A stretch of 35,681 nt of DNA, from UHGV virus genome UHGV-0164984; one strand, 5' to 3'. The notes under the pieces are model-generated. The model did not search any database. It was not told the DNA's origin and worked only from the letters and a program-made list of their open reading frames with translations. Made by a program: the position numbers and the translations under genes. Below are positions 6,008 through 9,677 of this stretch, piece by piece (positions within the stretch are counted from its first letter, which is position 1; each line of letters begins with the position of its first letter). Source of the DNA: a virus.

Positions 6008-6682
6008 TTAGGCTTTGATTTTGTATCTTCTTGGTTTTCCTGAGAAAATCACTGTACCAATTATAGAGCAATTACCGTTGATCTTAATGTAAGGCTCAGG
6101 CCAGTTTGGGTTTAACGCTTTGAGATAACGCTGTGTCCCATCTTCTATCAACCTTTTGAAGGTGGTTTCACCTGTATCGTGCATCAATGCAATAACGTCG
6201 TCACCGTGGCAGGCAGGTACTTCAGGATCGACAAAAATCATGTCTCCCGGGCGGTACTCATCAATCATTGAATCACCTATCACCCGCAAGATATAAGTCA
6301 TTTCCCCACAGGGTACAGGGCAGGGATACGTTTCTGCTGTGCTCAAATCAACCTCAGAATATCCAACTTCTTTCCATGCTCCGGCCTGTACCCATGATAT
6401 GACAGGGACTAATGTGATTTGTTTATTAGTGATTGAAACATCAGGTTTTTTTGTGATGTTCGTTGTCTGGTGTTCTTGATCGAGCCATCCGACAGGCAGG
6501 TCGAAACATTTTTCGATGTGTCGTGCCATGCTGTCACCGATATTTTTAGTAGCACCATCTCCCATAAACCTGCTGGTCTGGGTTGGCTCGCGATCAATCA
6601 TAGTGGCAAAGGAAGAATTCCCGCCAACACCATCTCTCAGTTTTCTGGCGTTAGACCGCCGGATGTCATGGATTGTTTTCAT
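6008..6682 (-). CDS. CI-type phage repressor (HTH + S24 LexA-like peptidase domain)
   Basis: 224 aa; C-terminal GDSM serine motif and downstream Lys (TFKRL) typical of S24 autoproteolytic repressors; divergent from cro with operators between. Confidence 0.9.
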   Translation of the reverse strand: MKTIHDIRRSNARKLRDGVGGNSSFATMIDREPTQTSRFMGDGATKNIGDSMARHIEKCFDLPVGWLDQEHQTTNITKKPDVSITNKQITLVPVISWVQAGAWKEVGYSEVDLSTAETYPCPVPCGEMTYILRVIGDSMIDEYRPGDMIFVDPEVPACHGDDVIALMHDTGETTFKRLIEDGTQRYLKALNPNWPEPYIKINGNCSIIGTVIFSGKPRRYKIKA

Positions 6683-7004: not shown

Positions 7005-7574
7005 ATGAGGCTAATCGTGGGTAAGCATCACTGGAAAATAGAAAAACAGCCTGAGTGGTACGTGAAAGCTGTCAGAAAAACTATCGCGGCGTTGCCGGGT
7101 GGTTACGCTGAAGCGGCTGACTGGCTCGATGTAACAGAAAACGCTTTATTCAACCGCCTTCGTGCAGATGGCGATCAGATTTTCCCGCTGGGATGGGCAA
7201 TGGTTTTACAGCGTGCTGGTGGCACTCACTTCATTGCTGATGCTGTGGCGCAGTCTGCAAATGGCGTCTTTGTGTCTCTTCCTGACGTCGAGGATGTGGA
7301 CAACGCCGATATTAACCAGCGTCTGCTGGAAGTCATTGAACAGATCGGCAGTTATTCAAAACAGATTCGTTCAGCAATCGAAGACGGTGTAGTGGAACCG
7401 CATGAGAAGACAGCAATTAACGACGAGCTGTATCTCTCAATTTCGAAGCTGCAGGAGCATGCAGCACTTGTCTACAAAATTTTTTGCATTTCAGAAAGTA
7501 ATGACGCCCGCGAGTGTGCAGCTCCGGGCGTCGTGGCGTCGATTGCTTCTGGTTGTGGAGAAACTAACGCATGA
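7005..7574 (+). CDS. CII-like phage regulatory protein (e14 YmfL-like, 189 aa)
   Basis: Position after cro; size and [19 protein letters not shown] segment resemble CII/CP76-type regulators as I recall them; alternative GTG start at 7017 with GAGG SD. Confidence 0.55.
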
Positions 7575-7909
7575 ACAGTTTAACAACACACTACCGTCGC
7601 TCGCAACTGATTGCGCTTCCTGTACCGGGTGGAAAAGCGAAGGTGGAATATTGCTATGCAGTGAATGTACCAGGTGACAGGGAAATTGTAACCCACAGCT
7701 TTGCAGAGTGGGCTGTGGGTGATTTCAACCGGCAGAAGGAGACAGTCCTTTGCGACAAGTTAACCGCTGGTTCAAAGATCACTACGGAGTGCCCGTCAGA
7801 GTCATTCGTTGGGAGCCGGAAACACAACGGGTTATCTACCTCCGCGAAGGTTATGAGCATGAATGCTTCAGTCCGCTCGAACAGTTTCGTCGTAAATTCA
7901 GGGAAATAG
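7571..7909 (+). CDS. Hypothetical protein (e14 YmfM-like size, 112 aa); C-terminal third of doubtful coding quality
   Basis: ORF in operon position; N-terminal two-thirds protein-like, C-terminal part low-complexity; an alternative-frame ORF overlaps (see findings). Confidence 0.45.
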
Positions 7910-7918
7910 AGGTCGGTC

Positions 7919-8860
7919 ATGAGCACTAAATTAACCGGCTATGTATGGGATGGTTGCGCTGCATCAGGCATGAAGTTATCCAGCGTGGCAATTATGGCCC
8001 GCCTGGCTGATTTCAGTAATGACGAAGGTGTGTGCTGGCCATCAATTGAAACCATTGCCCGTCAGATTGGCGCGGGGATGAGTACCGTCAGAACGGCTAT
8101 CGCACGGCTGGAAGCAGAAGGCTGGTTAACGCGTAAGGCGCGTCGCCAGGGTAACCGCAATGCGTCGAATGTTTATCAGCTTAACGTTGCGAAGCTTCAG
8201 GCAGCGGCATTTTCTCAACTGTCAGATTCTGACCCGTCAAAATCTGACGCATCAAAATCTGACCCGTCAAAATTTGATGCGTCGAAATCTGGCAAAAAAG
8301 CGGGTTTTCACCCGTCAGAATCTGGCGGGGATCCGTCAGTAAAATCAAAACATGATCCGTCAGATAAAAAACCTTCTCGTCCGGACGCTTCGCAACCGGA
8401 CACGCAGACGGCTGAACAGGATTTTTTAACTCGCCATCCTGATGCGGTTGTATTCAGCCCTAAAAAGCGCCAGTGGGGAACGCAGGATGATTTGACCTGC
8501 GCACAGTGGCTCTGGAAAAAAATCATCGCCCTGTACGAGCAGGCCGCCGAATGTGACGGCGAGGTGGTTCGTCCCAAAGAACCTAACTGGACAGCCTGGG
8601 CAAACGAAATTCGCCTGATGTGTGTGCAGGATGGTCGTACTCACAAACAAATCTGCGAGATGTACAGCCGCGTCAGCCGCGATCCGTTCTGGTGCCGTAA
8701 CGTGCTCAGCCCGTCGAAGTTGCGGGAAAAATGGGATGAGCTTTCCCTGCGCTTATCGCCGTCCGTCAGCACGCACACAGAAAAACGTGAAGACCCGTAC
8801 TTCAAAGCCAGTTACGACAACGTGGACTACAGCCAGATCCCGGCAGGATTCAGGGGGTGA
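7919..8860 (+). CDS. Replication initiator (O-like, N-terminal HTH; internal iteron-encoded linker)
   Basis: 313 aa; N-terminal winged-helix-like region (…WPSIETIARQIGAGMSTVRTAIARLEAEGWL…); tandem DNA repeats inside the gene; position after cII-like gene. Confidence 0.75.
   Translation: MSTKLTGYVWDGCAASGMKLSSVAIMARLADFSNDEGVCWPSIETIARQIGAGMSTVRTAIARLEAEGWLTRKARRQGNRNASNVYQLNVAKLQAAAFSQLSDSDPSKSDASKSDPSKFDASKSGKKAGFHPSESGGDPSVKSKHDPSDKKPSRPDASQPDTQTAEQDFLTRHPDAVVFSPKKRQWGTQDDLTCAQWLWKKIIALYEQAAECDGEVVRPKEPNWTAWANEIRLMCVQDGRTHKQICEMYSRVSRDPFWCRNVLSPSKLREKWDELSLRLSPSVSTHTEKREDPYFKASYDNVDYSQIPAGFRG
8231..8373 (+). repeat. Iteron-like direct repeats (putative replication origin) inside replication initiator gene
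   Basis: About 15-bp units GACCCGTCAAAATCT / GACGCATCAAAATCT / GACCCGTCAAAATTT / GATGCGTCGAAATCT (8231-8290), further CCGTCAG-containing copies to about 8373, followed by A-rich stretch. Confidence 0.6.
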
Positions 8861-8862
8861 TC

Positions 8863-9351
8863 ATGAGTCTGTTAAATGACGTTCAGAAATTCATTGAAGC
8901 CCATCCGGGGTGTACTTCCGGAGACATTGCGGATGCTTTTGCTGGTTACTCACGGCAGCGCGTTCTGCAGTCAGCAAGCAAGTTACGTCAGAGTGGGCGT
9001 GTGGCTCACCGTTGTGAAGGAGATACACGCAGACATTTCCCGCGCCTGACTGAGAGAGCGCAGGAACCGGAACCACAACCAGTTCGTGAAACCAGACCTG
9101 TGCGCAATTTCTATGTCGGCACTAACGACCCGCGGGTGATTTTGTGCCTGGCCCGCCAGGCGGAAGAACTGGAGTCCAGGGGCTTATTTCGTCGTGCTGC
9201 AACCGTGTGGATGGCGGCATTCCGTGAAAGCCACTCCCAGCCAGAACGAAACAATTTTCTGGCGCGTCGTGAGCGGTGCTTACGGAAAAGCAGCAAGCGC
9301 GCTGCATCGGGTGAAGAGTGGTATCTGTCAGGGAATTACGTGGGGGCTTAA
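8863..9351 (+). CDS. Putative transcriptional regulator with PerC-like C-terminal region
   Basis: ATG at 8863 with GGGGG SD; C-terminal LARQAEELESRGLFRRAATVWMAAFRESHSQPERNNFLARRERCLRK resembles the PerC/Pch family as I recall it. Confidence 0.5.
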   Translation: MSLLNDVQKFIEAHPGCTSGDIADAFAGYSRQRVLQSASKLRQSGRVAHRCEGDTRRHFPRLTERAQEPEPQPVRETRPVRNFYVGTNDPRVILCLARQAEELESRGLFRRAATVWMAAFRESHSQPERNNFLARRERCLRKSSKRAASGEEWYLSGNYVGA

Positions 9352-9677
9352 TGACGACGTTAACTCAATGCCAGCAGCAGGTGCTGGATATGCTGATTTC
9401 TTATCAGAAAGAACGTGGCTTCCCACCAACCAATCAGGAGGTGGCAACCATGCTGGGATACCGTTCGGTGAATGCAGCGGTGGAGCATCTTCGTGCTCTG
9501 GAGAAAAAAGGCGTCATCACGATAAAGCGTGGCGTGGCCCGGGGGATAACGCTTCATACCGCGGTGAAGGACGACGACAGCGAGGCGGTCGGGATTATCC
9601 GCTCACTGCTTGCCGGTGAGGAAAACGCCAGGCTGCGTGCAGCCCACTGGTTACATGAGAGGGGCCTGAAAGTATGA
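9351..9677 (+). CDS. LexA N-terminal DNA-binding-domain-like protein (no peptidase domain)
   Basis: LTQCQQQVLDMLISYQKERGFPPTNQEVATMLGYRSVNAAVEHLRALEKKGVI parallels the LexA winged-helix domain; TAATG stop-start overlap with upstream gene. Confidence 0.6.
   Translation: MTTLTQCQQQVLDMLISYQKERGFPPTNQEVATMLGYRSVNAAVEHLRALEKKGVITIKRGVARGITLHTAVKDDDSEAVGIIRSLLAGEENARLRAAHWLHERGLKV

Follow-up and report, generated by a model that had tools for sequence, protein, structure and literature searches.

The window analysed here, the whole 35,681-nucleotide (nt) stretch of the virus genome UHGV-0164984, is an intact lambdoid prophage of Escherichia coli, similar to e14 and SfIV, in which the segment 7750-7909 appears to be read in two frames, both kept by selection. 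One frame belongs to a 59-codon gene for a DUF4222 protein. The other belongs to ymfM, the 112-amino acid (aa) open reading frame (ORF) to which the SfiC activity of e14 is credited, and runs through the overlap as an unconstrained, overprinted tail. We assign this reading a probability of about 0.7. The initial annotation, made from the sequence alone, had left a choice between a genuine overlapping small gene and a misassigned coding frame. The first alternative held, for the product of the 59-codon ORF matches Pfam DUF4222 (E 8.6e-19), has 139 database homologues, is annotated by the Prokaryotic Genome Annotation Pipeline (PGAP) and has a low ratio of non-synonymous to synonymous change (pN/pS). 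The second did not, as the frame 7571-7909 is also under selection: all 36 loci keep it open, stop-creating codons are avoided, and its start context and stop position are conserved. On these comparative grounds, the segment is a conserved dual-coding one and not a misassigned frame.

The same comparisons identify the 59-codon ORF as a genuine gene under strong selection, equipped with its own conserved Shine-Dalgarno (SD) sequence and start. The coordinates initially read from the DNA are all correct: AAGGAG (7736-7741) is followed by an 8-nt gap and TTG (7750-7752), the TAA stop lies at 7927-7929, and the replication gene starts at 7919. Because an in-frame TGA, the nearest upstream stop, is located at 7720-7722, TTG 7750 is the first possible start. 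The product (an initiator methionine followed by 58 residues) scored 67.3 bits against the Pfam DUF4222 profile (PF13973; cut-off, 27), with residues 2-53 aligned to profile positions 3-52 of 53, so that the protein is little more than the domain alone. It also matched PHROG 1343 over its full length (1-59 of 59, E 2e-34). Nearly all of the database homologues are named DUF4222, and all start at the same residue; they reach down to 64% identity and come from Escherichia, Salmonella, Klebsiella, Enterobacter, Citrobacter, Kosakonia and other Enterobacterales. Taking one genome per species left 31 loci for the comparison of starts and SD sequences. ATG, GTG or TTG occupies the same start position in all the relatives compared, with ATG in 27 of 30 distinct sequences and TTG confined to the e14/E. 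coli/Shigella clade. Most loci also have an SD-like, purine-rich motif visible in the 20 nt upstream of the start.

Selection on amino acids follows the DUF4222 frame. Its pN/pS ranges from 0.17 to 0.37, and the analysis of codon periodicity that had been proposed as a check placed 51-68% of the differences at its third codon positions. Six sites in 7750-7909 vary among E. coli strains, and every one of these differences is silent in DUF4222 and changes an amino acid in YmfM. These patterns indicate that the amino-acid-level constraint in the overlap is borne wholly by the DUF4222 frame. An AlphaFold2 (AF2) model of the DUF4222 protein contains a five-strand barrel and a short helix (predicted local distance difference test score, pLDDT, 82.9), a confident prediction of a small SH3/Tudor-like beta-barrel. 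Sequence searches of PDB chains and NCBIfam returned no significant match for this protein or for YmfM, and no internal promoter for the DUF4222 gene was found between 6600 and 8100.

The ymfM frame, relative to which the DUF4222 frame is -1, is open across DUF4222 in all 36 diverged loci, and the third sense frame is open in none of them. In the relatives, the ymfM frame starts with 'MNSLT...', spans the whole DUF4222 domain and has its stop at, or close to, a shared position. With both frames conserved, the alignment of relatives that the initial annotation had called for did not return the pattern set to count against the small gene, namely conservation of 7571-7909 alone. We calculated the chance of such openness by exact resampling of synonymous DUF4222 codons, which gave a probability, P(open), of 0.02-0.17 per sequence and of 0.095 for the window; as an empirical baseline, the +1 frame of neighbouring genes is open in 11% of 52-codon windows. 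Four-fold degenerate sites are nearly randomised between lineages (identity mostly 0.1-0.5, with 0.28 expected for unrelated sequences), and when the calculation was limited to 5-7 lineages saturated at synonymous sites, openness had a joint probability of 10^-5.7 to 10^-8.5.

Codons that would close the ymfM frame are specifically avoided. Where a Leu or Val codon precedes one starting with A, a position at which NTA and NTG both create a ymfM stop, the third base is T in 62 cases, C in 34 and A or G in none. Before codons starting with G, where NTA creates the stop, it is C in 18 cases, T in 14 and again never A or G. At safe sites, with C or T starting the next codon, the counts are G 28, C 23, T 15 and A 3. 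Leu and Val codons ending in A or G therefore number 0/128 at stop-risk sites versus 31/69 at safe sites. Single columns illustrate this: CTG fills the Leu position before CGN in 19 of 28 sequences, and the Leu/Val position before AAC holds only GTT, CTT, CTC or ATT. In the window itself, V4 (7759-7761), V16 (7795-7797), V18 (7801-7803), V28 (7831-7833) and L43 (7876-7878) of DUF4222 all end in T or C, leaving the ymfM frame without stops. When third-base changes were mapped on a neighbour-joining tree, 16 of 16 in the three strict risk columns went from pyrimidine to pyrimidine; in twelve control four-fold columns, the changes from a pyrimidine led to another pyrimidine 27 times and to a purine 28 times.

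Genes that lack the overlap provide an external control and look as single-coding genes should, free of such avoidance. In the stand-alone DUF4222 genes of Serratia phage BZS1 and coliphages SaltyDalty and LMessi, the equivalent frame closes within 1-19 nt, and in the related rgdR gene it contains four stops, with GTA and GTG placed before A-starting codons. The exception is the stand-alone DUF4222 gene of Yersinia phage YeP1, in which the frame is open but has no upstream ORF feeding it. Taken together, these sequence comparisons show that stops in the ymfM frame are selected against and that both same-strand frames are maintained by selection. As befits a genuine overlapping pair, each gene has conserved start signals of its own and both frames are open beyond what the DUF4222 sequence leads one to expect. 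Two codon biases in DUF4222 lie outside what stop avoidance explains: Leu43 (7876-7878, column 46) is CTC or CTT in 28 of 28 sequences and never CTG (0/28), which would give Trp in YmfM and not a stop, and Arg51 (region 7909-7911) is always the rare AGG or AGA. The dual-coding segment is also spanned by an antisense ORF of 90 codons (7654-7926, minus strand). Since only 26 of the 36 relatives keep it open, we rejected it as a conserved gene; constraints on the two sense frames probably produce it as a side effect.

The two parts of ymfM differ in how they evolve. The non-overlapped part (7571-7749) behaves as coding sequence, with pN/pS of 0.14-0.49 and with the third codon position the most variable, and occurs as several sequence types that share motifs and a conserved 'MNSLT...' start. 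Its start context, GGAGAAACTAACGC-ATG-AACAGT, with the ATGA overlap on the ymfL stop, is kept in most loci. YmfM of the window differs from K-12 b1148 at a single residue (V101A) and matches PHROG 1170 over its full length (1-112 of 112, E 7.6e-70); family searches placed it in no Pfam or NCBIfam family. The low-complexity C-terminal third noted in the initial annotation falls in the last ~52 residues, which are rich in Ser, Thr, Gly and Ala and predicted to be disordered. The AF2 model of YmfM has a pLDDT of 48.5 overall, about 60-72 in the N-terminal part and 32-41 in the tail. In its own frame the tail has a pN/pS of 1.2-2.1, its differences concentrate at second codon positions, which are the third positions of DUF4222, and synonymous divergence of DUF4222 is not depressed in the overlap relative to the upstream part. 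Because of these features and the low pLDDT, the amino acid sequence of the tail is essentially free, and what is conserved is only its openness and its end.

That end is tied to the start of the replication gene. In the window, the ymfM stop arises from a rare DUF4222 Ile codon, ATA, followed by GAG, and is merged with the ribosome-binding site downstream. The stop comes from otherwise rare NTA codons in 28 of 30 sequences (ATA 18, TTA 7, GTA 2, CTA 1), followed by GAG or AAG. The replication ATG of the window is in the frame of ymfM; 9 nt separate it from the ymfM stop before it, and it precedes the DUF4222 stop by 8 nt, which gives an 11-nt overlap between the DUF4222 and replication genes. 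All but two of the e14-type loci with an intact replication ORF have the ymfM stop in the same frame as the replication ATG and 6-12 nt ahead of it, and this placement is independent of the type of replication gene downstream. Two loci (L029 and L030) have no long ORF from the replication ATG, though the ATGAGC start motif is at its usual position. Unlike the ymfM stop, the DUF4222 stop wanders, from +177 to +258. In loci of the more diverged L042/L047 type the roles are swapped: DUF4222 ends in an ATGA shared with the replication gene, and the ymfM stop falls 8 nt beyond the replication ATG. Folding the junction with the replication gene revealed no significant RNA structure. Programmed read-through of the ymfM stop into the in-frame replication gene was set aside because about a third of the relatives have TAA there.

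Both the ymfL/ymfM and the ymfM/replication gene junctions would suit a coupled operon, with an upstream stop conserved a few nt from the downstream start. Coupling to the replication gene fits this anatomy, the ymfM stop being placed more constantly there than the DUF4222 stop. We therefore propose a model in which translation of ymfM would begin by ATGA coupling to ymfL, produce a conserved N-terminal domain of ~58 aa and continue as a disordered tail over 52 out-of-frame codons through DUF4222. Termination would then take place over the replication gene's ribosome-binding site, with the in-frame ATG 9 nt further on. Thus, ymfL, ymfM and the replication gene could form one translationally coupled chain, with DUF4222 translated from its own AAGGAG and TTG, internal to ymfM. 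The tail would be selected for the unhindered passage of ribosomes and not for its product. Uninterrupted travel of ribosomes from ymfL and ymfM to the replication start is the reason for openness that we prefer, tentatively and at slightly less than even odds.

Several points weigh against this account of two selected frames. The conservation of the ymfM stop could be a by-product, because the conserved A that creates it also belongs to the SD sequence of the replication gene. The in-frame relation between ymfM and the replication gene is inherited with their shared junction, and so it is not independent evidence. The coupling rationale itself is one that we infer. The sequences are related, and the independence of lineages was approximated by the saturation of synonymous sites and by a parsimony count. 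The rare 63-aa, tail-less YmfM proteins in the databases imply that the tail is not indispensable for prophage persistence. Finally, we found no direct evidence of translation in either frame and, in the literature searched, no ribosome-profiling paper that mentions ymfM.

Variation among relatives bears on what the tail may do. ORFs similar to YmfM of 114-117 aa, 44-55% identical to that of the window, carry, in the -1 frame, a DUF4222-like ORF that starts with GTG (Pfam DUF4222 E 1.6e-17 for one of them), and the overlap persists at ~45-50% DUF4222 identity (L042, L045, L047). The ymfM frame of mEp460, SfV and many Stx phages runs past DUF4222 into Phage_ASH and Phage_pRha domains for a total of ~280-390 codons, and 80 of 80 IMG/VR loci of this type (L048-L127) keep a 59-codon, GTG-started DUF4222 inside. 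In mEp460 (L035 1852-3003) and a Stx2a phage (L041 1484-2317), DUF4222 lies out of frame in the 5' part of the annotated 'antirepressor/Rha' gene. Other sequences are natural or assembly variants. In two proteins of 63 aa (P0185 and P0182), YmfM is frameshifted near window position 7715 and stops 11 nt into DUF4222, losing the tail. In P0085 (102 aa), a deletion of ~50 nt joins the N-terminal part of YmfM in frame to DUF4222, and P0115 is a DUF4222 sequence with an internal stretch read in the ymfM frame.

The ASH/Rha fusions, which must use the overlapped stretch as a peptide linker in all 80 loci, point to the main alternative, in which the tail is open because it is a functional protein segment. 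It could serve as a degron, as a disordered linker or in interactions, and might for instance contribute to the inhibition of FtsZ. The near-constant total length of YmfM-type proteins (112-117 aa) and the absence of CTG at the Leu of column 46 are consistent with such a role, and disordered segments tolerate sequence change. However, a functional segment is difficult to reconcile with a pN/pS above 1 and differences concentrated at the second codon positions of the tail, with within-species changes that are all non-synonymous in the tail, or with synonymous change in DUF4222 that is not further suppressed. Furthermore, the composition of the tail is mostly imposed by the DUF4222 sequence, and its pLDDT is low. 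We consider a functional tail rather unlikely.

The two annotations in use for this locus each imply that only one gene is present. The K-12 reference (NC_000913.3) has ymfM (b1148) as the sole annotated gene at the overlap. RefSeq genomes annotated by PGAP, including that of the K-12 derivative DH1, have instead a 180-nt DUF4222 gene (WP_001250269.1), exactly the ORF of the initial annotation, and no ymfM. On the comparative evidence, both annotations are right and each is incomplete. If DUF4222 were the only gene, as PGAP has it in every genome among those listed, ymfM would be an annotation artefact that is open by chance or recent ancestry. The lack of a Pfam or NCBIfam family for YmfM, the unconstrained tail and the window's own P(open) of nearly one in ten, close to the baseline of neighbouring genes, are all in keeping with this view. 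Chance becomes a poor explanation once all 36 loci are considered, as they are open despite saturated synonymous sites (joint P at most about 1e-6) and avoid stop-creating codons against both internal and external controls. Nor does it account for the upstream 179 nt, which are coding-like in the ymfM frame and preceded by a conserved SD, ATG and ATGA. A lone DUF4222 gene is thus improbable.

A programmed -1 frameshift that fuses the N-terminal domain of YmfM to the DUF4222 domain has the relative position of the frames in its favour, and P0085 is such a fusion, albeit one made by deletion. It is very improbable, however, as the window lacks a slippery heptamer from 7723 to the DUF4222 domain and shows no significant RNA structure. 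The sole A-AAG-like site (F8-K9) is not conserved, K9 being Arg in 7 of 30 sequences. In addition, several relatives have a stop in the DUF4222 frame 0-6 nt ahead of its ATG, and each relative retains its own SD and start codon. The reverse of the PGAP view, in which ymfM is the only gene (as in NC_000913.3 and several phage records) and the 59-codon ORF is spurious, can be dismissed almost entirely given a curated DUF4222 family with stand-alone members, a characterised member (RgdR) whose point mutants alter function, purifying selection on amino acids in the overlap that acts in the DUF4222 frame alone, and a confidently modelled fold. We also considered a hairpin that masks the SD and start of DUF4222. 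The minimum-energy fold has a 6-bp stem (7735-7740 with 7746-7751), but the region gains no stability over shuffled sequences (z = -0.78) and the relatives have no obvious SD complement in the upstream 20 nt, and we rejected it.

In the reading with both frames selected, the occurrence of stand-alone DUF4222 genes in distant phages leads us to infer that the DUF4222 frame came first and that ymfM gained its tail by overprinting. The stand-alone DUF4222 of YeP1 (L038 1168-1230) begins MTNPSLTTTHS, and its DNA (CAGTTTAAC.AC) resembles the ymfM start (window 7571-7600). From this resemblance, the frames may have been split when ~170 nt were inserted between the domain and an ancestral leader. The e14-type arrangement may have originated in this way, which we offer as a lead only. 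Whether overlapped or stand-alone, DUF4222 genes are always located just upstream of a replication gene and overlap its start. The replication gene next to them varies, and can be O-like, of the HTH_36 type or a P4-type primase (L037-L040; L129 3720-4019). The constant placement hints at a replication-linked role for DUF4222.

The overlap has consequences for the attribution of SfiC, the SOS-inducible inhibitor of the FtsZ ring. The 7571-7909 ORF is the same gene as K-12 b1148 apart from V101A, with position 7872 the sole base at which K-12 departs from the window here, and lies in the same immunity-region context, although the window prophage has an intact replication gene and K-12 e14 a chimeric ymfN. 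The literature credits SfiC to the 112-aa product, and the same DNA is found here to hold a second conserved gene. The e14 library clone recovered in the filamentation screen (D1-8E) carries ymfL codons 142-185, all of ymfM and ymfN codons 1-92; by its extent, it contains the whole DUF4222 gene. In the decisive experiment, ymfM was cloned in pBAD24 as 'the open reading frame'. If the insert corresponds to 7571-7909, with its 3' end deduced from that phrase, it includes the DUF4222 SD, TTG and codons 1-53 and, with them, the entire Pfam domain. Deletions of ymfM take out both genes. The ymfM preprint reports no protein detection, tagging or frame-specific mutation, and later papers still cite YmfM as the division inhibitor. 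The SulA-independent loss of Z rings was thus obtained with DNA that carries both frames. Because the published constructs and deletions all affect both frames, crediting division inhibition to the 112-aa product is an assumption. The SfiC activity, known for 40 years, might instead be carried by the 59-aa DUF4222 protein or require both overlapping products, a possibility that we rate at roughly one chance in three. The ymfM tail would then be a rare case of an ORF kept solely as an open ribosome track that feeds the in-frame replication gene. Single-base changes that disable one frame and are silent in the other do exist (C7756T, T7750C and T7761G). C7756T turns Q3 of DUF4222 into a stop and T7750C abolishes its TTG start, with Asp and Leu respectively unchanged in YmfM, whereas T7761G leaves Val in DUF4222 and places TGA at codon 64 of ymfM. 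The matter is of practical interest, as ΔymfM serves as a tool in work on filamentation in urinary tract infection. No mention of the ymfM/DUF4222 overlap was found in the literature searched. The ORF itself has been annotated before, but the conserved dual-coding unit with ymfM and its consequence for SfiC appear not to have been described.

The closest characterised relative of the DUF4222 protein is RgdR (ECs1581), a 99-aa protein of prophage Sp7/OI-51 of enterohaemorrhagic E. coli that is reported to activate LEE1 and type III secretion and to repress motility, and whose point mutants change function. The two proteins are 41% identical over 49 residues, and both are small prophage proteins encoded just upstream of a replication gene whose start they overlap. 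The RGD motif, the N- and C-terminal extensions and the 99-aa length that define the RgdR-type subgroup are absent from the window protein, which has 59 aa and D-H-Y-G at the aligned position. Furthermore, the rgdR gene is not overlapped by another ORF, whereas the DUF4222 gene of the window is overlapped by ymfM. The conserved pairing with ymfM gives a first handle on DUF4222, an almost uncharacterised family.

Overlapping genes are a known arrangement in phages. In lambda Rz/Rz1 and similar overprinted pairs, a larger gene encloses, on the same strand but in another frame, a small gene that has a start of its own. The ymfM/DUF4222 pair resembles them in having one ancestral, structured frame and one younger frame. 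It differs in that DUF4222 is not fully embedded, extending 20 nt past the ymfM stop, and in that the overlapped part of the outer gene shows stop avoidance only and no amino acid constraint. We know of no functional link between the YmfM and DUF4222 products. The pair is a new and experimentally consequential variant of the arrangement; as a clean, long-lived case of overprinting in temperate phages, it informs how overlaps arise and why gene finders report a single frame. Among inhibitors of division, Kil of lambda, KilR of Rac and DicB of Qin are small prophage proteins that cause filamentation by blocking the Z ring when they are de-repressed with the prophage. We found no sequence or fold relationship to Kil, KilR or DicB, and, unlike their genes, ymfM and DUF4222 are located in the rightward operon, between the cII-like and replication genes.

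Table 1. Features of the ymfM/DUF4222 locus, in positions of the window.
Feature	Position	Strand	Basis
LexA-like repressor	6008-6682	-	ORF list, family searches, related annotations
ymfL, cII-like regulator (Phage_CP76 / NF041471)	7005-7574	+	ORF, domain match, annotation
ymfM ribosome-binding site, GGAGAA	7557-7562	+	Sequence; within start context GGAGAAACTAACGC-ATG-AACAGT
ymfM ORF, 112 aa (K-12 b1148 'cell division inhibitor YmfM', PHROG 1170)	7571-7909	+	ORF, profile match, K-12 annotation
Non-overlapped ymfM, N-terminal domain	7571-7749 (179 nt)	+	pN/pS 0.14-0.49; pLDDT about 60-72
SD of DUF4222 gene, AAGGAG	7736-7741	+	Sequence; within ymfM codons K-E
DUF4222 gene, 59 codons, TTG start, TAA stop (WP_001250269.1)	7750-7929	+	ORF, Pfam, RefSeq, conservation
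Putative dual-coding segment, holding DUF4222 codons 1-53 and, one base further downstream, ymfM codons 61-112	7751-7906	+	Frame comparison
ymfM stop TAG (7907-7909) merged with replication gene ribosome-binding site GAGG (7909-7912)	7907-7912	+	Sequence, relatives
Replication gene, HTH_36, 313 aa, ATG 7919	7919-8860	+	ORF, domain match

The locus is widespread: bases 7400-8100 have matches in 2,685 E. coli genomes (2,694 complete replicon records), K-12 derivatives included (99.9% identity). The local order is the LexA-like repressor, a Cro-like gene, ymfL, the 112-aa ORF and the 313-aa HTH_36 replication gene, and the TGA stop of ymfL (7572-7574) shares bases with the ymfM ATG to form the ATGA. 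As in related prophages, the replication gene is followed by a PerC-family (YfdN-like) gene at 8857-9351 and a short LexA-like ORF (119 aa) at 9318-9677. Inside the replication gene, a 15-bp unit, TCTGACCCGTCAAAA, is present in 4.3 tandem copies at 8228-8291, where the repeats encode the low-complexity stretch SDPSKSDASK of the replication protein. They look like origin iterons embedded in the initiator gene, in the fashion of lambda O.

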